A stretch of 64,000 nt of DNA from Candidatus Woesearchaeota archaeon. Lineage in GTDB: Archaea; Nanobdellota; Nanobdellia; Pacearchaeales; GW2011-AR1. The stretch is from contig CAZSGW010000001.1 of assembly GCA_964606775.1 (NCBI GenBank), forward strand, positions 24,002-88,001, read 5' to 3'. This document shows positions 6,924 to 64,000 of the stretch, in pieces (position 1 is the first letter of the stretch; every line of letters starts with the position of its first letter). The notes beneath the pieces were generated by a model that worked only from the letters and a program-made list of their open reading frames with translations, was not told the origin of the DNA and did no database searches. Position numbers and translations under genes: made by a program.

Positions 6924-7994
6924 CTATTTTTTCAAATGCAAAGCATCAACTGGACAAATTTCCATACAACAAAAACATCTAATACATTTCTTCTTATCGA
7001 TAACAGGATAAGGCTTTAAAGTGATTGCGTCAACAGGACATTTCTTCGCACAAGTTCCACACTGAATACATTTTTTCTCATTACAAATAATCGGCTTCTG
7101 TGCAAACGCTCTTCTCAACCTACTCTGATGAAGTTTACAAGGAGGCTTCTTAAAGTGAATTTTCGGTAATTTTTTCAAACCAACCAACTCAAATTTATAA
7201 TCTGGATATAAACCTCTCTTTATTGCAAAATTTATCGCAAAAATCTTTTTAGGGCTACACCCTATAATACCACTTCCAGCAATATCCAAAGCAACAGCAT
7301 CTTTTGAAGCTAAGATTATTTTGGAATTAACAGGACTTCCCGAAGTGGGACCATGTCCTTGCATTCCAACTACCCCCTCCATAATATTTAATTCAGGTTT
7401 TATATTTTGATAAATATCAACTAATAAATTAGAAAATTTTTTCTCTCCTTTTGCATCATTATGTAATTTCTGTTTCAAACCCCCTGGAATAACCCCATAC
7501 AAATTTTTTATCGCTCCAGTATACTTAGTTAAAATATGAGTTTTTAATTTCGGAACATTTATTATTAAATCCATTTCCTTAAAAGTTTTAGAAACTGGGA
7601 ACTCTTTCAAAACCTTGTTCTTAGGATTTTTAATTTTAGACAATTTATCTTGCTCAAAAATAACTACCTTAGCACCATACTTTTTCGCAACCTTTTCAAT
7701 GCCCGACTTCTTGAAGAACTCATCAGTATCCATAAACGAAGATTCCCCGATAAAAATCTTACATTTATTTTTCTTCAATATCTTACAAATTGCATCAATG
7801 ATTTGTGGCTGAGTATATGTAGCTTTTTTATTCTTGACATTTGCTGTAACTATATTGGGCTTTATCATAACCCTTGAATTTTTCTTAAACTCAAAACCAA
7901 TTAAATCTATAGATTCCTTAACAGCCTTATCGACTTCTTTCTGAGAATAAGAATTACATTTTACAACGGAAACTTTTTCAACCTCTTTCTTCAT
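6924..7994 (-). CDS. DUF362 domain protein with C-terminal 2x[4Fe-4S] ferredoxin domain
   Basis: The C-terminus carries two CxxCxxCxxxCP motifs (CIQCGTCAKKCP and CIRCFCCMEICP). The N-terminal 280 aa resemble DUF362 iron-sulfur-associated proteins. Confidence 0.65.
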   Translation of the reverse strand: MKKEVEKVSVVKCNSYSQKEVDKAVKESIDLIGFEFKKNSRVMIKPNIVTANVKNKKATYTQPQIIDAICKILKKNKCKIFIGESSFMDTDEFFKKSGIEKVAKKYGAKVVIFEQDKLSKIKNPKNKVLKEFPVSKTFKEMDLIINVPKLKTHILTKYTGAIKNLYGVIPGGLKQKLHNDAKGEKKFSNLLVDIYQNIKPELNIMEGVVGMQGHGPTSGSPVNSKIILASKDAVALDIAGSGIIGCSPKKIFAINFAIKRGLYPDYKFELVGLKKLPKIHFKKPPCKLHQSRLRRAFAQKPIICNEKKCIQCGTCAKKCPVDAITLKPYPVIDKKKCIRCFCCMEICPVDALHLKK

Positions 7995-10625: not shown

Positions 10626-12509
10626 ATGACTAAAGAAAAATTTTATGTTACGACTGCAATTGATTATCCCAATGCTGAACCGCATATTGGACATGCGTAC
10701 CAGAAAATTATAGCGGATGTTCTAGCTAGATGGAATAAAATTCTTGGAAAAGATGTTTGGTTTTTGACTGGAACTGATGAGCATGGGAAAAAAATCCAAG
10801 AAGCTGCTGAGAAAAAAGGAAAAACTGCTCAAGAGTTGGTTGACGAAGTTTCTGAAAAATTCAAGGAGGCGTGGAAGGCTTTGAATATTTCTCCAAGTCG
10901 TTTTATTAGAACTACTGATTCAGACCATGAAGAACTTGTTAAGGAAGTTATTGAGAAGTGTAATGAGAATGGAGATATTTACAAAGGAGAGTATGAAGGT
11001 TTGTATTGTACTGGATGTGAAGCATATTATACTGAAAAAGATTTGGAAGATGGTTGTTGTCCTCTACACAATAAACCTGTTGAGAAGATTAAAGAGGAAA
11101 GTTATTTTTTTAAGTTAAGTGAATATAAAGATTTTTTATTGAATTGGTATGAGGAGCATCCTGAATTTATTCAACCTAAAGAGAGAAGAAACGAAATTAT
11201 TAATCGTGTTAAAGAAGGTTTGAAGGATCTAAGTATTTCTCGAACCTCTTTTGATTGGGGAATTCCTTTTCCTTTAGATAAGAAACATATAACTTATGTT
11301 TGGTTTGATGCTTTATTTAATTATTATTCTGGTTCGGGAGAGAATCATAAATACTGGCCTGCTAATTTACATTTGCTTGGTAAGGATAATTCGTGGTTCC
11401 ATTGCGTTTACTGGCCTGCATTTTTGAAGTCTGCTGGAATTGAATTACCTCAAACAGTTTTTGTTCATGGGTTTTTGAGTTTTAATGGACAGAAAATTTC
11501 AAAGTCCTTAGGAAATGCAATTTCTCCGAAGGTTCTTGTTGATAAGTATGGTGCTGATGCTGTTCGGTATTTTGTTTGTCGTCAGTTTCCTTTTGCTGAA
11601 GGAAATGATGGGGATTTTAATGAGGATTCTTTGGTTGACAGATATAATAATGAGTTGGCAAATAAGTTGGGTAATTTGGTTTCACGTGTTTCTGGGTTGA
11701 TTGAGAAGAATGATGTTGAAAAATGTGAAAATTCCTTATTGAAAAAATTAAAGTTAAAGAAAATCGAAGAGTTATTTCAAAATTATGAATTGGATAAAGT
11801 TTTGAATGAAGTTTTTGCTTTTATTGATGTTTGTAATGAGTATGTTCAAGAGAAGAAACCTTGGGAGACTAAGGATAAGAAAGTTCTTTATGAAGTTGCT
11901 AATGCTATTAAGAAGATTTCAATTTTGTTATACTCTTTTATTCCTGAAACTTGTGAAGAGATTGCCAAGAAATTTGGTGGTTGGAAATTTACTCGCGAAG
12001 AATTCGAAAAAGATTTAGATGAAAATGTAATTGTTAAGAAAGGAAAAAATTTGTTTGAGAAAATTGAGTTGAAAGACGGATTAAAAAAATCAACAACTGA
12101 TTCTAGTTTAAAGGATGGGTTGAATAAAAGTAAAGTTATTAAAGAGCCTGAAGTTAAAGAGATTATGGAAGGAGTTGGACAAGCGAACTTTGAAGATTGG
12201 GAGAAACTTGATTTGAGAGTTGCTAAAATTGAAAATGCTGAAGATATCAAAGGTGCAGATAAATTGTATAAATTGAGTTTGAATGTTGGTGAGCTTGGTG
12301 AGAGAACAATCTGTGCAGGAATTAAAGAGTTTTATAAGAAAGAAGATTTAATTGGAAAAAAAATTATTTATTTTTCAAACTTGAAGCCTCGGAAGATGAG
12401 AGGAATTGAATCTCAGGGAATGTTACTTGCAGCTTCGAATAAAGATCATACGAAAATCGTTATTATTTCTCCAGAAGGAGATATTGAAGAAGGAAGTGTT
12501 GTTGGTTAA
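10626..12509 (+). CDS. metG: Methionyl-tRNA synthetase, bacterial (Thermus/Bacillus) type, with C-terminal tRNA-binding (Trbp111/EMAP-like) domain
   Basis: PHIGHAY (HIGH motif), FLTGTDEHGKKIQ, KISKS (KMSKS), Cys-knuckle CTGCE..CCPLH; the C-terminal ..LDLRVAKIENAEDIKGADKLYKL.. is an OB-fold tRNA-binding domain. Confidence 0.9.
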   Translation: MTKEKFYVTTAIDYPNAEPHIGHAYQKIIADVLARWNKILGKDVWFLTGTDEHGKKIQEAAEKKGKTAQELVDEVSEKFKEAWKALNISPSRFIRTTDSDHEELVKEVIEKCNENGDIYKGEYEGLYCTGCEAYYTEKDLEDGCCPLHNKPVEKIKEESYFFKLSEYKDFLLNWYEEHPEFIQPKERRNEIINRVKEGLKDLSISRTSFDWGIPFPLDKKHITYVWFDALFNYYSGSGENHKYWPANLHLLGKDNSWFHCVYWPAFLKSAGIELPQTVFVHGFLSFNGQKISKSLGNAISPKVLVDKYGADAVRYFVCRQFPFAEGNDGDFNEDSLVDRYNNELANKLGNLVSRVSGLIEKNDVEKCENSLLKKLKLKKIEELFQNYELDKVLNEVFAFIDVCNEYVQEKKPWETKDKKVLYEVANAIKKISILLYSFIPETCEEIAKKFGGWKFTREEFEKDLDENVIVKKGKNLFEKIELKDGLKKSTTDSSLKDGLNKSKVIKEPEVKEIMEGVGQANFEDWEKLDLRVAKIENAEDIKGADKLYKLSLNVGELGERTICAGIKEFYKKEDLIGKKIIYFSNLKPRKMRGIESQGMLLAASNKDHTKIVIISPEGDIEEGSVVG

Positions 12510-54508: not shown

Positions 54509-55024
54509 ATGAAAGCAAAAAAAGGCATAACAATAACAATAATAATTCTGGTATTAGTTACAAGTATTTTTCTAATTTCAAGTAACGAGGAAAATCAAAA
54601 ATCAACTTCAAAAACAAAAACATCTTCTGAAACAAAACAGGAAAAAACAAAACCTTCAAAAGTTCCATTAACAAATTCTGAGAAAGAAAAAATAGAAGAC
54701 GCATTACTGTCAAGCCAATTCATCAAAGACATCCCAACAAAAAATCCAATTTCAATAAGATTCTTCTATTTCGAAAACGGCTCAAGAATTTGGCAAGATA
54801 GATTTTACATGGCTGATGGAGAATTAATTGATAAAACTTCGACAGGAATAGAAATAATAATCCACTCAAAATACATAGAAGATTTAGGAACAAAAGAACT
54901 TTGTTCAGTTATACAAGATGCAAGAAACAAAGGGGATTTAGGCACCGAAACAGAATACAGTCAAACAAAATTAGCTTGGAAATACAAAGGCATGCTAAAA
55001 CACAAAGCTTGTTTTGGATTATAA
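54509..55024 (+). CDS. Membrane-anchored hypothetical protein (171 aa)
   Basis: N-terminal TM, Ser/Thr/Lys-rich linker, and a C-terminal globular domain. Confidence 0.4.
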   Translation: MKAKKGITITIIILVLVTSIFLISSNEENQKSTSKTKTSSETKQEKTKPSKVPLTNSEKEKIEDALLSSQFIKDIPTKNPISIRFFYFENGSRIWQDRFYMADGELIDKTSTGIEIIIHSKYIEDLGTKELCSVIQDARNKGDLGTETEYSQTKLAWKYKGMLKHKACFGL

Positions 55025-55921
55025 CTCAAAACTCTCTAAATCTTTCACAACCTTCGAATTTTCAAAAATTTCTTTAGCCTCATTCTCAATTTTTTCCATA
55101 TTATTCTCATACCTGCCACTAATATGTGTTAAATATAATTGTTTAACCTTCGCCTTCTTTGCAATCTCTCCTGCATCTTTAGAAGTTAAATGCCTATATT
55201 CTTCGGCTTGCTCTTGCAATTCACTTCCAAAAGTAGATTCACAAACCAATAAATCAGCATCTTTAACAAAGGGAACAATTTTGTCATTCATTTTAGTGTC
55301 TAAAACAAAAGAAATCTTTTTACCTTCTTCAACATAAGTTAAATTTTTTGAGCTATATTTTTTACCCTCATGAACAACATCCTCTCCATTTTTCAATTTT
55401 TGTAACAATGGACCTGCAGGAATACTCGTTTTTTCCAACTTCCCCTTATCTATTCTTCTCTGTTCTTTAACTACAAAATTATAAGCATTACAAAACGTTC
55501 CATGGTTCATCTTTTCACATTCTAAATAAAAATCATCATTCTCAAAAAATCTTCCCGAAACATCCTTAACTGCCAAATTATGATCTGCAACAAATTTAAA
55601 GGCATCTAAGATTCTCCCAATATAATCCTCAGTATATTTTGGACCATGAATATACAGTTTTTTATTATACTCGCTTAGAGCAAAAGTCTGCAAAATTCCC
55701 GGAATTCCTAAAATATGGTCTCCATGCCAGTGAGTAATCAAAATGCGGCTAAGTTTTAAAGGATTCAAACCCGCTTTCCTGAATTGTCTCTGAGTTCCTT
55801 CTCCACAATCAATCAAAATATTCTCATCTTTATATTGCAAATAAATCGCAGTATGATTTCTCTTTGCAGTTGGCACTGCATCTCCAGTTCCTAAAAAAGT
55901 TAATTTTATTTTTTCTGCCAT
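55019..55921 (-). CDS. rnz: Ribonuclease Z (tRNA 3' endonuclease, MBL fold)
   Basis: ILITHWHGDHILG (HxHxDH); 300 aa with RNase Z-like termini. Confidence 0.8.
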   Translation of the reverse strand: MAEKIKLTFLGTGDAVPTAKRNHTAIYLQYKDENILIDCGEGTQRQFRKAGLNPLKLSRILITHWHGDHILGIPGILQTFALSEYNKKLYIHGPKYTEDYIGRILDAFKFVADHNLAVKDVSGRFFENDDFYLECEKMNHGTFCNAYNFVVKEQRRIDKGKLEKTSIPAGPLLQKLKNGEDVVHEGKKYSSKNLTYVEEGKKISFVLDTKMNDKIVPFVKDADLLVCESTFGSELQEQAEEYRHLTSKDAGEIAKKAKVKQLYLTHISGRYENNMEKIENEAKEIFENSKVVKDLESFEL

Positions 55922-57184: not shown

Positions 57185-58120
57185 ATGGCTTCAATAAAAA
57201 AGTGTCCAGAATGCGAAAGTATAAATTTAACTTACGATTCACACCTTGGAGAAATAATTTGCAATGATTGTGGATTAGTTGTTGAAGAAAAAATGGTTGA
57301 TACAGGTATTGACCTTTCTGGAAAATTTGATAAAACAGAAAAAAAAGGTCGTGGTGGAGCTCCAATTTCAAGACAAAAATTCGATCAGGGTCTAACAACC
57401 AATGTAGGCGAAATATCAGATATTTACAAATTAGACCCAAAACAAACAAGAAAATTCCTAAGGTTAAAAAAATGGCAAGAAAGAGTTTCAACCTCAATTG
57501 AAAGAAATCTAAGACTTGCTATGGCTGAATTAAGAGTTATTTCTTCTTATTTACATCTTCCAAACGTAGTTAGAGATGAAGCTTCAAGAATTTACAATTA
57601 TGTCCTACAAAGAGGTTTAGTTCGTGGAAGAAGTATGGAATCTGTAATCGCAGCTTGTTTATACGCCGCTTGTAGAAGTTACAATATTCCAAGAACTCTC
57701 GACGAAATGGCAACAGCATCAGATGTTGAAAGAAAAGAAATAGGACGAACATACAGATTCATAATAAGAAAATTAGGCATCAAAGTAAAACAATCCTCTC
57801 CAAAAGATTACATCTCAAGATTTTCTTCTGTACTAAAACTATCTCCAAAAACTCAAAACGAAGCATTAAAATTATTGAAAGATGCAGACAAAGTTGAACT
57901 AACATCTGGAAGAGGGCCAGCTGGAATTGCAGCAGCAGCACTTTACGTAGCAGCATTAATGAATGATGAGAAAAAAACACAAAGAGAAGTTGCTGATATT
58001 GCAGGAATAACAGAAGTAACAATTAGAAATAGATATAAAGAATTAATTGAAAAATTAGAATTAGAAGAAAAAATAAAACAAAAAGAAGCTGAATCAAAGA
58101 AAAAGAAAAAAGAAGAGTGA
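57185..58120 (+). CDS. tfb: Transcription initiation factor TFB (TFIIB)
   Basis: N-terminal Zn ribbon CPECES..CNDCG, B-finger, and two cyclin repeats. Confidence 0.9.
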   Translation: MASIKKCPECESINLTYDSHLGEIICNDCGLVVEEKMVDTGIDLSGKFDKTEKKGRGGAPISRQKFDQGLTTNVGEISDIYKLDPKQTRKFLRLKKWQERVSTSIERNLRLAMAELRVISSYLHLPNVVRDEASRIYNYVLQRGLVRGRSMESVIAACLYAACRSYNIPRTLDEMATASDVERKEIGRTYRFIIRKLGIKVKQSSPKDYISRFSSVLKLSPKTQNEALKLLKDADKVELTSGRGPAGIAAAALYVAALMNDEKKTQREVADIAGITEVTIRNRYKELIEKLELEEKIKQKEAESKKKKKEE

Positions 58121-58235
58121 TTAATTTCTCCGAATTATAAAAAGAAACTTATTGAATCTCTAAAAAGTAAACTTTTCAAAAACAAAAATCTAAAAAGACT
58201 AAACTTTTTATAATCTAATTATCTGAAATTTTTAT

Positions 58236-58319
58236 GCGGAGTTGCCGGAGCGGTCAAACGGGACGGACTCAAAATCCGTTGGCTCAGTGCCTACGTAGGT
58301 TCGAATCCTATACTCCGCA
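58236..58319 (+). tRNA. tRNA-Leu (anticodon CAA), class II with long variable arm
   Basis: GCGGAGU/ACUCCGC acceptor, anticodon loop CUCAAAA, variable arm UGGCUCAGUGCCUAC, T-arm GTAGG-TTCGAAT-CCTAT, discriminator A. Confidence 0.85.
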
Positions 58320-58426
58320 TAAATAAGATAGATTCGAAGCCTTGGGTTTCGTTCATTTGAAAAATGAAAGACGTAAATAACTTGTTTCTTTGCATCGGTG
58401 AAGAATCTTTAGATTGCTTCAGCGAC

Positions 58427-58467
58427 GTAGGTAACTTGATTACCTGCACGAATCCTATACTCCGCAT
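58427..58467 (+). other. Partial duplicate of the tRNA-Leu 3' portion (acgtaggt + 16-nt insert aacttgattacctgca + cgaatcctatactccgcat)
   Basis: A 19-nt exact match to 58301..58319, plus an 8-nt match to 58293..58300 of the upstream tRNA, interrupted in the T-loop; followed by a T6 run. Confidence 0.5.
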
Positions 58468-58546
58468 TTTTTACCTAAAAAATTAAACTTCAATAATTAT
58501 TTTTAAAAGAATAAATCCTTAAAAACAGAAAAGAAGTTAAAATTAT

Positions 58547-59110
58547 ATGGATAGAAGAAAATTTCTAAAAGAAATTGCAATGTCAATGACAGGCATATGT
58601 ATTTTTCCTATGACAAGTTTTAATTGGAAATCAGATATAGAATATGATAAAGATATAATAGATGTAAAAAAAATTTTCAGGAATAAAATTGCTTTCAGAA
58701 AAACATCCAAAAATGAGTTGGGAATGGAAGCATTTTATTGGGACAAAAAAATAGAAAAACAATTACAAGAAGATAACTTCTACAAACCCAAAGGAATATA
58801 CTCTCCAAAAAAAGTAAGAAAAAATGAAAAAACGATAAATGAATTAGAAATATTAACTACCGAATCCACAGGTATAAAAGAAGAAAGAGACCGAGCATAT
58901 GTTTGGGGTTGGAGACCCTTAAGCTCTGAGGACAAATATGGAATTTTTGACAAAGAATATTACCTCTTTGAAAAAGAAAACGAAGAAAAGAAAATGAATT
59001 TTTATTTAATTCCTAAACAAAATTCAACAACAAAAAACCTGACAAAAAGAAAAAGTACCCTCATAACTTCAGAAAAAGGGATTTATGAATTCATCAAAAA
59101 TGAACATTAA
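58547..59110 (+). CDS. Hypothetical secreted protein with twin-arginine-like signal (MDRRKFLKEIAMSMTGICIF)
   Basis: RRKFLK matches the Tat consensus (S/T)RRxFLK, followed by an h-region. Confidence 0.4.
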   Translation: MDRRKFLKEIAMSMTGICIFPMTSFNWKSDIEYDKDIIDVKKIFRNKIAFRKTSKNELGMEAFYWDKKIEKQLQEDNFYKPKGIYSPKKVRKNEKTINELEILTTESTGIKEERDRAYVWGWRPLSSEDKYGIFDKEYYLFEKENEEKKMNFYLIPKQNSTTKNLTKRKSTLITSEKGIYEFIKNEH

Positions 59111-59522
59111 GATGATGAAATTTTCTCTCATCCCAAACGCCATCTAAATCATAATCTATATATTCTATAACTTCTTTATCACTTTTATAAAAATATTTGG
59201 ATTTTCTAAAAATATTTCCTTCGGAATTGTAAGAATCTACTGAACAACGAGGAAGGCGTGAATTAGAACATTTCTTAACTTCTGTAACATCCAAAGAACC
59301 ATTAGATGAATAATCAATTCGCTTAATTTCATTCAAACTATCACTAAAATAAATAGCCATATCTCTCATCCTATCGTTATTACAATCCTCATAAAGAGTA
59401 TCAACAGAATAACCTCCATCGAAAAATTCCTCAGGACTTGGAACCTGGGCATTAACTTTCCCAACAGATAACTCCAAAAACAAAGGCAATCCAAAAAAAA
59501 TATTTTTACAAAGAGTTTTCAT
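59094..59522 (-). CDS. Small secreted Ca-binding-motif protein, paralog 1 (142 aa)
   Basis: Signal peptide ending GKVNAQVPSPEEFFDGG; D-x-D-x-D-G-like motifs (DYDLDGVWDE, DYSSNGSLD). Confidence 0.45.
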   Translation of the reverse strand: MKTLCKNIFFGLPLFLELSVGKVNAQVPSPEEFFDGGYSVDTLYEDCNNDRMRDMAIYFSDSLNEIKRIDYSSNGSLDVTEVKKCSNSRLPRCSVDSYNSEGNIFRKSKYFYKSDKEVIEYIDYDLDGVWDERKFHHLNVHF

Positions 59523-59540
59523 TTTAAATCCAGAAACAAA

Positions 59541-60020
59541 TTATCGGCCAAATCGATGATAAAGTGTGTTACGCGTTATTTTGTCCCACTCACCATCACC
59601 ATCATTGTCATAATAAGTTAAATAAATAGATTTATCGTCCTCAAAAGAAATTCTTTTTTCTTTTTTATGACTTAATAAATTTCCATTAATATCATATTTC
59701 TTTACAACTTCAAGAGGTGTCCGTCCAGATGTAAAAATAATTACATCAATATCTCCATCACCATAGTAATCAACATATTCAATCTTATCCGGAGAAAAAT
59801 CATAACCAGCACGAAGTGCTGTAACTTCATCATTCCCTATTCCATTCCCATTCATATCCGCAGAATAGTTTTCAGTATAATACTTGCCATCCTGAAAAAA
59901 TTTCTCTGGAGTAGGCATAGGCTCCTGAGCATTAACTTTTCCAATCAATAAACTACCTACTAAAGCTGTTCCCAAAATTAATTTTCTACCTAAATTTTTC
60001 ATATTATTTTTAAGAATCAA
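59541..60020 (-). CDS. Small secreted protein with three dockerin/EF-hand-like D-x-[DN]-G-[DN]-G motifs, paralog 2 (159 aa)
   Basis: Signal peptide ending GKVNAQEPMPTPEKFFQDG, then DMNGNGIGNDE, DYYGDGDIDV and DNDGDGEWDK. Confidence 0.5.
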   Translation of the reverse strand: MILKNNMKNLGRKLILGTALVGSLLIGKVNAQEPMPTPEKFFQDGKYYTENYSADMNGNGIGNDEVTALRAGYDFSPDKIEYVDYYGDGDIDVIIFTSGRTPLEVVKKYDINGNLLSHKKEKRISFEDDKSIYLTYYDNDGDGEWDKITRNTLYHRFGR

Positions 60021-60060: not shown

Positions 60061-63000
60061 CTAAATTGAATCCGCAATTATTCCTTTCATAACACTTAAA
60101 TCATTTTTATTTGATTCAAGTCTACTCGCAACTTCTCCACTAAAAACCTCTTTAGAAACATAATACTGAATAAATACATCAACATCAAAATAATCTTGTT
60201 GTACAAAAGGGCTTTCTAAAACAGCCAAAGAACATTTAAGAGAATCTACTTCATCATCACAACCAGACAAACCAGCATTCTCGCTTTTATCTTTAATTTC
60301 TAGAATATTAAGCAAATATTTCATTGTCAATTCCTGCTTATTCAACAACTGATATTCTGAAGTAGAAATAACGTCACTCTCTCTTAAACTATTTAATAAA
60401 TACATATTTTCAATTATTTCATCTTCAAGTTCAGGGAACCCTTTTTTAACTTCTAAAATAGCCAAATTAAGATTCAAGCTACTTTTAGGTTCCAATGCCA
60501 AATAACCCTCTCTCTCAGCAATCGCTTTTCTAACTTCAATCAAATTCATTTCACCCTTCTCAATTTTTTTACACTTATCATCTTTCCAAATTTCCCACCA
60601 AGATTTTTTAAACAAAGGACCTTCATTAGAACAAATCTTTCTATTAATTATTGTTTTGAATTCAGCACATCCCCAATTGGCATCGCTTCTATCATTCAAA
60701 TTACAAGTATAATACATTCTATAACCAATCTGTCCATTAATCTCGTTAATATCATCAATAAGTCTATCCAACCTCTTAAAAGAACTATCTACCTTTTCAA
60801 ACTCTTCCAAAGTTTCAGAAGTTCCTAATTGTTTTTCCTCCAAAATTTTCCTTATCTCTAAAATATTAAAAGTGGCCTTATTCTCAAAACACTTTTCCGA
60901 AACAGAAGATGTGAAACCACTTCCAGAAGTTTCAGAAAAACAATAATTTCCTTTAACCAACTCACTTTCAGCCTCAGTAATAGTCACTCCTGATTTTTCC
61001 TCATCTTCCTTAATCTTATATTCTATAACACTCTCAAAAACTTCTTCTTCAACCAAATCATTAACTAACACTCTAAGCTTAGAATTAGTTAAATAATAAA
61101 CATCTTCCAAATTTTCTCCCTTGAATTGAAGTTCACTAATAAGGTTATTGATATCCTCTAATCCTTGTTCAATATTATTAAGCTTCTTCTTCTCAATTTG
61201 AATATTTGATTTAACCAAAGGAATTTGTTCCGTAGATTTAACATCTTCCCTTATAGAAACCACTACAACAGGAATTAAGTTATCCCCTTCAAACTCTCCA
61301 AGTGTCCTTTTTTGGATTGCCTTGCTTCCAAAATGCTCAGCAAAAATAAGCCTATCCAAATTATCCCTGCCAAGATAAATCAAATTATGAGTATACCTAA
61401 CTTTAGATTTTTTACCAGTTCCCTCTCCACATGACAACCTATCATCTTCAGGATTTTTACTAGATGCTCCAGGATTATAAGCACTACCAGGCCAATAAAC
61501 CCCTACAATCATTCCAGGTTTTAATTTTCCTTGCTCTTCCAAATTAGAAAGCATCTGAATACCATCATCCCTTAACCTATAAAAATCTGTCCGAGTTTCA
61601 CTCAAAGAATTAACTCCCACTGATTGTATCTCCTCATTTATTGCAACAAGCTTATCTTCAGCATCATTATCTACATCAAACAAATACCAAACTCTATCTC
61701 CATAATCCTCTAAATGTCTGCACCAAGCATTAACCCAACTAACTTTATCTCCAAATAAATTCAAATACAATCTAGAAACATAACCAGAACATCCTCCTAC
61801 TTCTTGTCCAATAAACGGAAGAGACTCTTGATTTTTCAAAATTTCCTCCAATAAAACATCCTTCTCAGAAATTTCCACCCTAAAACAAGGCGACCAAATT
61901 AACTTAACAGGATGCTCATCCAATAAATCATAACTTTTCAATTCAAATTTCTTATTATTCCCTCCAGGAAAAGAATAAACAAATGCAATTCTTTGTTGCT
62001 CATCTTTCCATTCCTTAAAAATAACATTATGTCCTCTAGTAGGAGAAGTATCGCTATAAACTTCAAGCATATCTCCCTTTCGAATTACACTAAAAACATG
62101 TTTGCCTGAATATTCTTTATAATTGTCCAGTCTTTTTCTAATCTCTTTATTATTTTCATTTTTCCATTTATAATTCTTAAAGTATGAATTCTCAAAAGTC
62201 AAATCTTGTCTATCATACCAAACACCATATGGATTAGCTCCCGCTTCAGCATAAATGCTTTTAACCCCATCATAACAACTAAATATAGATTCATCATTAT
62301 CATATTCTGAACTACAGCCCAACTCTCCAGGAATTTTTCCAGAATCAACAAAACTCTGAGCAGTTTCTATGATTTTATTTCTCATCTCTCCAGATTCACA
62401 CCGTAATTCATAAGTATCGCCACTATTTTCATCAACCAACCTCTTTGTCAAAGAAATTTTATAAGCATTCAAAGCCAAAACCCCGTGAGCATTTCCTCTT
62501 AAAAAAAGCAATTTAGCCTTTTGTTTATCCCAGAAAACTTTGTCAATTATATTATTAATTTTAGCAATCTGAACGCCAGGAGTTTTTTCAGTATTATCTT
62601 TAATATTATCTATTGTGCTCTTGAATTCCTCTTCACTTAAGTAATCTTCTTCACTCAACAGAATATCTGAATAATGTTTTCCTAAACCTTGCAAACTATC
62701 ATCCGCTAAACCTTCAATATTCTCGCCACCGCTTTTAGCAAACTCTCTCAAATTAGGAGAATCTATAACATCTTTAACACTCTCTGTATCTAACCAACAC
62801 TTAATTTTTTTATCTCCACAATAACCAACCTGAACCCAACGAGAACCATTCTTAGCAGCATTAGGATCAGTTCCAATACCAGGATTTTCAGTAGCACAAA
62901 TTCTTGTAATTCCTTTATTATAAATTTCAGGGTCAGCAAAATCTCCAGCTGTCTCCTGAACATTCAAACCCGAGTCAAGCAAGCTGTAAAAACTGGGAGT

Positions 63001-64000
63001 TCCAGAAATACATTCTGCTTCAGAACTTATATCTTTCTGTGAAGCTTGCTGATTAACATATTCGTCAGTAATGTAATTTTGTGCAAAGGAAGTTGATACT
63101 TCCTTAAATCCACATTCCTCTTGACCATTAACAACTATGCACATTTCATCATATCCTGAAGGAGCAGTAAAATCAACACTCTGAGATTCATAATCTCCCG
63201 TAGGAACATAACCCGAATCAACTATCTTCGAATAAGCAGTATCCTGAAAATAAGTACTCGAAGGAGAACCTTTCAAATAAACCCTATAATAAGATCCTCT
63301 ATCGTTTCCAGCATAAATATGGTAGAACACCTTATATTGCGAAACAGGAGGATTAGTTGCAGTGGTGTAAGGTATTTCTTCAAATCTTCCGTGAAACTGA
63401 GACGGAGAATCAGGTTCGGTGAGTGCATCTAAGAAATCCATTGCATTAGGATAAGCAATAGAAGAGTACGCTTTACAAATAGTCCCGCCTGCCTCTTCAA
63501 CAGAACGTGCCTTAAAAGCCTTGTATGAATTAGAGGCATAACTTTGCGTAAAGAAATTCATTGATTCACTTGCAGTTTGCCACGCATTCTGAACTCCCAA
63601 ATATTCTCCACCCCCTCTAACGTTCTGTCCTAAAAGAAGAGAAATAACTTTTGGAACACCTACCTTAACCAAAGGAATTCCTTGTCTCCATAAAAACTCA
63701 CACATATAAATACTATGAATCTGATCACAAATACCAACCGTTCTTCCAGTTTCCAAATTCTCTTGTAGGCAATCCCTATAAGATTCCTTAACTGCAATCC
63801 ACCCATCAACTCCTGCATGCAATCCAGACAAACAAACAGGAACATAAACTTCCCCGCCAAACGCTTTAAAATTAGGTAAACATAATGCTAAACTTCCAAT
63901 AATTCCAGACTGAACAGGATCACTAACAGGGTAGGCTCCTCCAAAATCACATCTCGATGCAGGACAAATTACAGGGTCACAAACATTAAACAAAAGTTTA
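60061..64000 (-). CDS. Giant Cys-rich extracellular protein of unknown function (>1310 aa; N-terminus beyond the window)
   Basis: The ORF-track start at 63993 is a TTG with no upstream stop before the window edge, so the gene continues beyond the window. Many Cys pairs are present; no recognised catalytic motif. Confidence 0.55.
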   Translation of the reverse strand, partial: KLLFNVCDPVICPASRCDFGGAYPVSDPVQSGIIGSLALCLPNFKAFGGEVYVPVCLSGLHAGVDGWIAVKESYRDCLQENLETGRTVGICDQIHSIYMCEFLWRQGIPLVKVGVPKVISLLLGQNVRGGGEYLGVQNAWQTASESMNFFTQSYASNSYKAFKARSVEEAGGTICKAYSSIAYPNAMDFLDALTEPDSPSQFHGRFEEIPYTTATNPPVSQYKVFYHIYAGNDRGSYYRVYLKGSPSSTYFQDTAYSKIVDSGYVPTGDYESQSVDFTAPSGYDEMCIVVNGQEECGFKEVSTSFAQNYITDEYVNQQASQKDISSEAECISGTPSFYSLLDSGLNVQETAGDFADPEIYNKGITRICATENPGIGTDPNAAKNGSRWVQVGYCGDKKIKCWLDTESVKDVIDSPNLREFAKSGGENIEGLADDSLQGLGKHYSDILLSEEDYLSEEEFKSTIDNIKDNTEKTPGVQIAKINNIIDKVFWDKQKAKLLFLRGNAHGVLALNAYKISLTKRLVDENSGDTYELRCESGEMRNKIIETAQSFVDSGKIPGELGCSSEYDNDESIFSCYDGVKSIYAEAGANPYGVWYDRQDLTFENSYFKNYKWKNENNKEIRKRLDNYKEYSGKHVFSVIRKGDMLEVYSDTSPTRGHNVIFKEWKDEQQRIAFVYSFPGGNNKKFELKSYDLLDEHPVKLIWSPCFRVEISEKDVLLEEILKNQESLPFIGQEVGGCSGYVSRLYLNLFGDKVSWVNAWCRHLEDYGDRVWYLFDVDNDAEDKLVAINEEIQSVGVNSLSETRTDFYRLRDDGIQMLSNLEEQGKLKPGMIVGVYWPGSAYNPGASSKNPEDDRLSCGEGTGKKSKVRYTHNLIYLGRDNLDRLIFAEHFGSKAIQKRTLGEFEGDNLIPVVVVSIREDVKSTEQIPLVKSNIQIEKKKLNNIEQGLEDINNLISELQFKGENLEDVYYLTNSKLRVLVNDLVEEEVFESVIEYKIKEDEEKSGVTITEAESELVKGNYCFSETSGSGFTSSVSEKCFENKATFNILEIRKILEEKQLGTSETLEEFEKVDSSFKRLDRLIDDINEINGQIGYRMYYTCNLNDRSDANWGCAEFKTIINRKICSNEGPLFKKSWWEIWKDDKCKKIEKGEMNLIEVRKAIAEREGYLALEPKSSLNLNLAILEVKKGFPELEDEIIENMYLLNSLRESDVISTSEYQLLNKQELTMKYLLNILEIKDKSENAGLSGCDDEVDSLKCSLAVLESPFVQQDYFDVDVFIQYYVSKEVFSGEVASRLESNKNDLSVMKGIIADSI

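Follow-up and report, generated by a model that had tools for sequence, protein, structure and literature searches.

The DNA analysed here, a stretch of 64 kb (henceforth the window), holds a tRNA-Leu(CAA) gene whose terminal 19 nt recur downstream beyond a non-coding segment of 128 nt (Table 1). Upstream of it lie genes for a superoxide dismutase (SOD), ribosomal protein L15e, an RNase Z homologue, LSm, S8e and transcription factor B (TFB), the last of which ends at 58120. The RNase Z homologue (55019-55921, minus strand) is a metallo-beta-lactamase protein with a match to the tRNase Z N-terminal domain (PF13691, 1.2e-7), and is the likely candidate for an enzyme that would trim the long 3' trailer of the tRNA-Leu transcript. 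In Pfam searches (E<=0.001), neither the three small ORFs at 58547-60020 nor the 1310-aa ORF at 60061-63993 (minus strand) obtained a match. The GC content is flat over the region, and the locus is set in a housekeeping context rather than in an island. The sequence-only reading had seen no integrase in the window, and the Pfam search of the neighboring genes concurs, with no recombinase found between 51.5 and 64 kb.

The 19-mer CGAATCCTATACTCCGCAT has two exact occurrences in the window, whereas the chance expectation for such matches is 0. The initial observation that the tail of the tRNA is duplicated downstream and then followed by a run of T is hence borne out to the letter (19/19 nt; TTTTTT). 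The search for a third copy, which had been recommended along with it, found none in the 64 kb even with up to three mismatches allowed. The other four tRNA genes of the window show A/T boxes at about -30 comparable to the one listed for tRNA-Leu. Two further features of the gene may be recorded here. Its acceptor stem runs on for 5 bp into the leader and trailer, so that TTTATGCGGAGT (58231-58242) and ACTCCGCATAAA (58312-58323) are complementary at 12/12 positions. Immediately upstream of the gene there is also a 32-nt tandem direct repeat with 75% identity between its copies (58155-58218), the second of which holds the TATA-like box, and this may be a duplicated promoter region.

The sequence-only reading had extended the duplication further to the left, and described the distal piece as a 3' portion of the tRNA with a 16-nt insertion in its T-loop. 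The 8-mer ACGTAGGT, which is found at 58293-58300 in the tRNA, is indeed present again downstream, but at 58425-58432, i.e. starting 2 nt before the position 58427 that had been given for it. Between this and the distal 19-mer there are 16 nt (AACTTGATTACCTGCA, 58433-58448); in the tRNA this place is occupied by one T only. However, the downstream 8-mer belongs to a hairpin that is typical of the insert family (58427-58447), and if the 16 nt were removed, the T-loop would be reduced to 6 nt and lack U55; the description as an interrupted tRNA piece therefore over-reads the similarity. At the matching place of a related insert, at the locus L049 (loci are numbered with the prefix L), ACGTAG is likewise found, and the tRNA of that locus lacks it. 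Because the 8-mer sits in a structural hairpin of the family, and because ACGTAG is also present in the L049 insert, we take the firm duplication at the window locus to be the 19 nt.

Table 1. Features of the tRNA-Leu(CAA) locus and its insert, in window coordinates.
Feature	Position	Strand	Basis
Putative archaeal promoter of tRNA-Leu, CTTTTTATAATC, with a TATA-like box at about -31 to -23 from G1	58204-58215	+	read from the sequence
Intact tRNA-Leu(CAA), type II, intronless	58236-58319	+	ARAGORN; Rfam RF00005, 58.7 bits
Proximal 19-nt direct-repeat copy, completing the tRNA; from C56 to one nt beyond the discriminator A73	58302-58320	+	exact 19-mer
Non-coding insert body of 128 nt, here named family D-W	58321-58448	+	no ORF, no Rfam match; nhmmer; alignment to relatives
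ATAG-ATTCGAA, an inverted short copy of the T-loop and of the 3' strand of the T-stem of the local tRNA, pairing with the start of either repeat copy	58328-58338	+	reverse complement; MFE fold
Two small hairpins	58336-58350, 58352-58368	+	MFE fold
Internal repeat unit A, GACGTAAATAACTTGTTTCTTTGCA	58370-58394	+	76% identical to 58424-58448
12-bp hairpin with a UUUA loop and the core motif AATCTTTAGATTGC	58395-58425	+	fold; common to other bodies
Internal repeat unit B, the repeat-adjacent hairpin (stem 58427-58434 / 58440-58447, loop in the AACUUGAUU region); contains ACGTAGGT at 58425-58432	58424-58448	+	repeats, fold
Distal 19-nt direct-repeat copy, the displaced or duplicated tRNA 3' end	58449-58467	+	exact 19-mer
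T6 run, likely transcription stop of the tRNA-plus-insert unit	58467-58472	+	first run of at least 4 T past the tRNA start

The insert body is rich in potential secondary structure. Near its start GATTCGAA, when reverse-complemented, matches TTCGAATC exactly (p=0.01 against shuffles), and a closing helix between 58326-58335 and 58450-58461, the latter at the start of the distal repeat, is found in both the MFE fold of 58321-58472 and the family consensus, which concur as well on the small hairpins, the 12-bp hairpin and the repeat-adjacent hairpin. The first of the small hairpins (58336-58350) is kept with base changes in the bodies at L049 and L033, and the position of the repeat-adjacent hairpin is kept across the family with compensatory changes. 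The window body is about 54 nt longer than these two relatives, at unit A, on account of an internal duplication (58370-58394 vs 58424-58448). The predicted fold of the trailer is somewhat more stable than those of shuffled sequences (z=-2.1, or z=-3.9 when the tRNA is included). A search of Rfam 15 over 58120-58560 (E<=10) returned the tRNA as the sole match, everything else having E>0.05 and lying far under the gathering scores. We also considered C/D-box small RNAs, and reading the bodies by eye revealed no consistent combination of C and D boxes.

To place this arrangement in a wider context we collected related loci from two sources. A query with the TFB protein recovered 80 loci from Pacearchaeota and Woesearchaeota assemblies at 86-94% identity (the best at 93-94%), and a scan of metagenomes with a tRNA-Leu(CAA)-type pattern contributed 24 further loci, in none of which was the window's own tRNA sequence found. 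All comparators are metagenome-assembled genomes of species other than that of the window, the closest having a TFB that is 93-94% identical, and an exact look-up of the window TFB protein returned no record. Among the 270 tRNAs predicted in 1.27 Mb of this DNA, with the window included, we recorded exact terminal copies of at least 12 nt within 1.6 kb of the gene. The outcome was strictly directional: all 30 copies of a tRNA 3' end lie downstream of their tRNA and all 14 copies of a 5' end lie upstream, with 0 in the opposite arrangement. Such copies are seen at genes for Leu, Arg, Cys, Met and Gly tRNAs, and about one in seven of the tRNA genes at the examined Pacearchaeota/Woesearchaeota loci has a module of this kind. 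The repeats are 12-28 nt long overall, and their start is constant within a family. The intervening bodies are mostly of 35-240 nt, non-coding and hairpin-rich, the exceptions being three of 1.07-1.25 kb, each with a small two-gene cassette. No repeat pairs at a distance of 1.6-10 kb were seen in about 100 loci, nor any integrase enclosed by a repeat pair in about 100 related loci. The threshold of 12 exact nucleotides missed shorter or decayed copies, for instance at L021, L100, L023 and L041. With these, the outer copies range from perfect ones to ones with several mismatches, which is the expectation for events of different ages.

The window feature is one case of a common architecture, in which an intact tRNA is flanked in the order promoter, 5' fragment, body, tRNA, body and 3' fragment. 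In genes with an upstream unit a TATA-like box is located about 25-30 nt before the outer 5' fragment and none before the intact tRNA; in the window a T-run follows the outer 3' copy and none follows the intact tRNA. These outer positions of promoter and T-run are what insertion into a pre-existing gene predicts. A comparison across genomes is afforded by tRNA-Leu(AAG), which is identical at L075 and L033: at the former a T-run comes directly after the tRNA, whereas at the latter the tRNA is followed by a body and a 19-nt copy. The TFB-linked tRNA-Leu(CAA) of L022, in a species other than that of the window, also has no insert. When TFB distances were compared with a view to vertical descent as against mobility, the pattern was star-like and uninformative.

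At most of the TFB loci there is a tRNA-Leu just 3' of TFB, mostly with the anticodon TAG, and otherwise with CAA, AAG or a tandem CAG and TAG pair. This synteny with a varying anticodon suggests anticodon switching or gene replacement at one locus. Three contigs with an archaeal TFB and tRNA-Leu (L044, L048 and L073) are filed under bacterial bins (Patescibacteria, Bacillota and Omnitrophota), and were probably mis-binned.

The bodies fall into families whose relationships cut across the identity of the tRNA. The window body aligns with those at the TFB-linked tRNA-Leu genes of L049, L033 and L062, and an nhmmer model built without the window has its sole match in the 64 kb at 58329-58388 (E=0.0019). 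It has CCTTGGGTTTCGTTC in common with the body at the tRNA-Gly of L097, and AATCTTTAGATTGC in common with the bodies of L001 and L063 (as 13-14-nt exact matches within the D bodies of these two). We assign it with modest confidence to D-W, as a divergent member with one copy in the 64 kb. D-W bodies are also present at tRNA-Gly(TCC) in L097 and at tRNA-Arg(CCT) in L093, the latter being close to that of L049. In the D-W members of the window, L049 and L033 (Leu), L097 (Gly) and L093 (Arg, with a slightly degenerate copy) the repeat invariably starts at C56; in other families it starts at T54 (DA and D1) or at A59/U60 (D3). A single family is found at tRNAs of different identity, and each time the repeat matches the local tRNA. 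In the DA family the bodies are about 85% identical over 60 nt at the tRNA-Arg(TCT) of L019 and the tRNA-Cys of L037, each with repeats matching the local gene. The same body occurs as its reverse complement upstream of the tRNA-Met of L017 (nhmmer E=7.7e-9; 59-nt local alignment), and relative to the end of the gene the polarity of the element is the same in L019, L037 and L017. The constancy of DNA polarity at all three DA sites points to an event at the level of DNA and not to a function of the sense transcript.

As would be expected of MITE-like non-autonomous elements, several genomes have similar copies at different sites, namely at Leu and Cys in L032, Leu and Arg in L053, and Leu and Arg in L019; the window has a single copy in its 64 kb. 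In L032 a tRNA-Leu (11440-11700, plus strand) is followed by a body and the tail of tRNA-Cys, and 3.6 kb away a tRNA-Cys (7700-7950, minus strand) is followed by a near-identical body and the tail of tRNA-Leu. The simplest reading of this reciprocal exchange of tails would be that two copies of the element within one genome recombined and thereby inverted 3.6 kb. Tandem units are present in L019, L053 and L062, and L001 appears to have arisen by deletion from the two upstream units that stand in tandem in L031. In this close pair the bodies are far better conserved than the flanking intergenic DNA, which fits recent mobility but also selection on a function. In L053 (5040-5790, minus strand) a tRNA-Arg(TCT) has an array on either side, each of two or more units, and the repeats are 100% identical; the region is partly N-masked, making the copy number uncertain.

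A further regularity concerns a segment near the start of the bodies. In 11 of 21 downstream bodies the first 45 nt contain an exact reverse complement, at least 7 nt long, of the local T-loop/T-stem; against shuffles all 11 have p<=0.06 and 10 of the 11 have p<=0.02. The segment tracks even unusual T-loops, being GGGACTC for the TTCGAGT of the L037 tRNA-Cys and TTTGAACC for the TTCAAAT of the L093 tRNA-Arg, and in the inverted unit of L017 it instead matches the D-arm region (GTAGC). Bodies that are 85% identical differ in this target-matching segment of 5-11 nt, which lies beside a conserved scaffold. An inverted copy of the local target is accounted for neither by an att site borne by the element nor by a plain duplication of the target site.

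Repeats of the end of a tRNA gene are a standard sign of integrated viruses and plasmids, and the repeat in the window would normally be filed as the scar of one; what it encloses is a tiny non-coding module. [quoted passage not shown] The intact gene would have been retained on the promoter side, with the module and the outer copy forming a 3' trailer that is presumably trimmed by RNase Z. Under this proposal the 128-bp hairpin-rich D-W module would be bounded on both sides by the gene's last 19 bp; of these two copies, the promoter-side one keeps the tRNA intact, while the outer one would be a by-product carrying what was probably the original T-run terminator. The module would be one of a set of small dispersed elements of Pacearchaeota/Woesearchaeota that insert at either end of tRNA genes, with the break in the T-loop or D-loop and with a polarity fixed relative to the gene end. 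The tRNA would then be transcribed with a structured 3' trailer of about 150 nt and freed from it by the RNase Z homologue encoded at 55019-55921, and for the trailer itself no function need be assumed. Searches of the window neighborhood, the cassette-bearing relatives and the viral contigs of IMG/VR revealed no recombinase, no transposase and no free form of the element. The 18-nt core CGAATCCTATACTCCGCA had 0 matches among these viral contigs, and a scan of them for a T-loop followed by an inverted T-loop gave six matches, which we attribute to chance because all are in unrelated high-GC DNA.

The alternative nearest to this, and one that we nevertheless regard as unlikely, is that the repeat is the scar of a large integrase-encoding virus or plasmid (SSV/pNOB8-type) in the T-loop of tRNA-Leu, either deleted down to 128 bp or having its other boundary past the window with the secreted-protein genes as cargo. 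Sites of the att type in tRNA genes usually consist of a repeat that begins in the T-loop and extends to the 3' end, and the archaeal precedents extend to 5' fragments upstream of a tRNA: in Caldiarchaeum a 5' fragment of tRNA-Thr upstream of the tRNA provides one for integrative elements (PMC3293823), and in the Thermococcaceae partial tRNA genes have been produced by element integration (PMC9897764). The three related loci with gene cassettes of 1.1-1.25 kb between the tRNA and its 3' copy could be taken in the same sense. However, the window has no third 19-mer, the downstream genes fall outside the repeat pair, neither the window neighborhood nor the cassettes yielded an integrase, and the absence of pairs 1.6-10 kb apart holds over about 100 loci. 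Moreover, random deletions would have spread the body sizes, which cluster at 35-240 nt, and bodies 85% identical at Arg, Cys and Met with locally matching repeats are awkward for an element that carries its own tRNA fragment. Hence, the att-type scar put forward in the sequence-only reading survives in one respect, namely that DNA was inserted into the 3' end of a tRNA gene with the distal copy as the repeat on its outer side, but not in its specifics of an integrase and a cargo; the secreted-protein locus lies beyond a repeat pair that encloses only 128 nt of non-coding DNA.

The resemblance to archaeal attL/attR pairs of the SSV1 and pNOB8 type is nonetheless real. In both, a direct repeat of the terminal part of a tRNA begins in a loop of the tRNA, one copy completes the gene and the other lies beyond foreign DNA, and 3' copies are downstream and 5' copies upstream. 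The present modules differ in that the enclosed DNA is of 35-240 bp (128 bp in the window) and non-coding, in the lack of an integrase in about 100 loci, and in that one body family serves different tRNAs with locally matching repeats and has an inverted copy of the target in each body. Casposons offer a second comparison: those of Methanosarcina insert at the 3' ends of tRNA-Leu genes, where they occur in tandem arrays and give rise to long duplications (PMC4779613). The modules share with them a target at the 3' end of a tRNA gene, often tRNA-Leu, repeats of at least 14 bp, tandem arrays with shared repeats, remnants, and the use of the site by other elements. Yet the duplications of casposons extend from the CGCA end of the tRNA into the flanking DNA, whereas the ones described here start in the T-loop and mostly stop at the end of the tRNA; and casposons occur in both orientations, while here the polarity to the gene is fixed. 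The modules are also without element-borne terminal inverted repeats, Cas1 and PolB: the bodies are non-coding, and the cassettes gave no such matches. Instead of the target duplication of fixed length and the terminal inverted repeats borne by the element that define a casposon, we find repeats of 12-28 nt and an inverted motif that changes with the target. A casposon-like mechanism was on these grounds set aside, as neither the position of the repeats nor the inverted repeats fit it.

Systems that act through a folded strand or a guide form a third group, comprising the attC sites of integrons, the guide sequences of IS200/IS605 and the bridge RNA of IS110; a long target duplication is not known as a feature of these. 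Like them, the modules have units of 60-130 nt closed by a helix, with structure kept more than sequence, and a segment complementary to the local target beside a scaffold. Unlike them, they show no attC R/L boxes, no associated integrase or transposase was found, and they have the long target duplication. That the inverted segment matches the local gene hints at a mode of targeting yet to be described. On this basis we raise, speculatively and in the awareness that it is doubtful, the idea that the modules might constitute an undescribed class of miniature non-autonomous elements, served by a recombinase, which home in a guide-like or folded-strand fashion to the T-arm or D-arm loop from either end of a tRNA gene by means of the 5-11-nt complement of the target, and duplicate 14-28 bp of it.

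Another explanation would dispense with mobility in favor of a functional RNA, i.e. a small RNA or co-transcribed 3' trailer that, through its closing helix and its mimic of the tRNA tail, regulates the maturation of tRNA-Leu or acts as a decoy. Read-through is to be expected, as there is no T-run before 58467, and the stability of the fold (z=-2.1 for the trailer, -3.9 with the tRNA), the retention of hairpins with some compensatory changes, and the inverted T-arm copy that tracks the local tRNA, unusual T-loops included (L037 Cys, L093 Arg), could all reflect selection on a transcript. On the other hand, upstream units contain the same body in reverse-complement form, the distribution is sporadic with empty sites, the distal copies have decayed in some loci, Rfam offers no match, and the counts of G-U against A-C pairs in the helices do not favor the sense strand. 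We therefore judge a dedicated RNA function improbable as the origin of the arrangement.

Somewhat less probable still is a purely local origin, in which the 3' region of the tRNA was duplicated in tandem, or a break was repaired with templated filler, and the product then diverged. The tandem units of L019, L053 and L065, where the repeat reaches into the flank, lend themselves to such an account, and simple tandem duplication fits these three loci but not the window, where the sequence past the distal copy is unlike the start of the body. Likewise, the inverted T-arm copies resemble the products of template switching; however, local templating cannot produce motifs and whole segments common to bodies across genomes and tRNA genes. 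We also considered a hidden second tRNA-Leu or decayed tandem gene, for which bodies of 35-53 nt are too short; the boundary of identity is also sharp.

The other reading that had been entertained from the letters, that the distal piece belongs to a split or intron-containing tRNA, as a 3' exon joined by the splicing endonuclease to the tRNA body or to an unseen 5' half, scarcely retains any credibility: although introns in the D- and T-loops of tRNAs occur in other archaea (PMC4033280), and a 4-bp helix UAGG/CCUG can be drawn between the T-arm of the tRNA and 58443-58449 with a 3-nt bulge on either side (UU|C and CA|C), by which U55 would be linked to C56', the recommended search for a bulge-helix-bulge (BHB) at the junctions of tRNA and insert, run systematically, found only this central helix in the window (H=4, h'=0, h=0), with the outer helix absent and the inner one starting with a mismatch; L049 and L033 lack even H=4, and only one of 23 scored downstream units reaches a relaxed 4/2/2; no 5' partner is at hand, the 5' acceptor strand GCGGAGT being nowhere else in the 64-kb window; splicing would only regenerate a tRNA already encoded intact, and excision of the 16 nt would leave a defective T-loop of 6 nt; upstream and downstream units co-occur inconsistently; and bodies of the same kind are found inverted at the 5' ends of other tRNA genes. 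The parallel with the split, permuted and multi-intron tRNAs of Nanoarchaeum, Caldivirga and the Thermoproteales is confined to breaks in the D- or T-loop with adjoining hairpins, as here the intact tRNA is always present, there is neither a conserved BHB nor a complementary partner for leader and trailer, and the pieces duplicate the gene rather than complement it. Trans-splicing of upstream and downstream pieces was considered separately on account of L001, where the trailer of the U unit pairs with the leader of the D unit, but the two unit types are not consistently found together.

If the insertion of small non-autonomous modules is the correct explanation, they would represent a type of small mobile element in the genome-reduced DPANN archaea, as well as a source of genome inversions. 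[quoted passage not shown]

Two other sets of units in the related loci deserve a description of their own. First, two-gene cassettes lie between a tRNA-Leu and its 3' copy at L002 (3866-5121), L034 (11159-12381) and L065 (3176-4245). Those of L002 and L034 are homologous and in opposite orientations, and code for a protein of 272-293 aa with a nucleotidyltransferase-like NDIDI motif and another of 81-113 aa; that of L065, where the repeat reaches into the flank, codes for a weakly MntA-like protein and one of 126 aa. When the cassette proteins were considered as candidate recombinases, the only matches were weak ones to nucleotidyltransferases (MntA/Pol-beta-like), which suggests a toxin-antitoxin-like cargo. 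Second, the upstream 'U1' units (L001 10665-10786, L019 10980-11078, L031, L060 and L006) have a strongly conserved motif, GTTCGGGTCAAAC(G/T)AGTTTTCC, which resembles the D-loop (GGTCAAAC) of the adjacent tRNA-Leu. As judged from this motif, the 5' fragment of U1 looks like nt 1-24 of the tRNA interrupted after nt 15.
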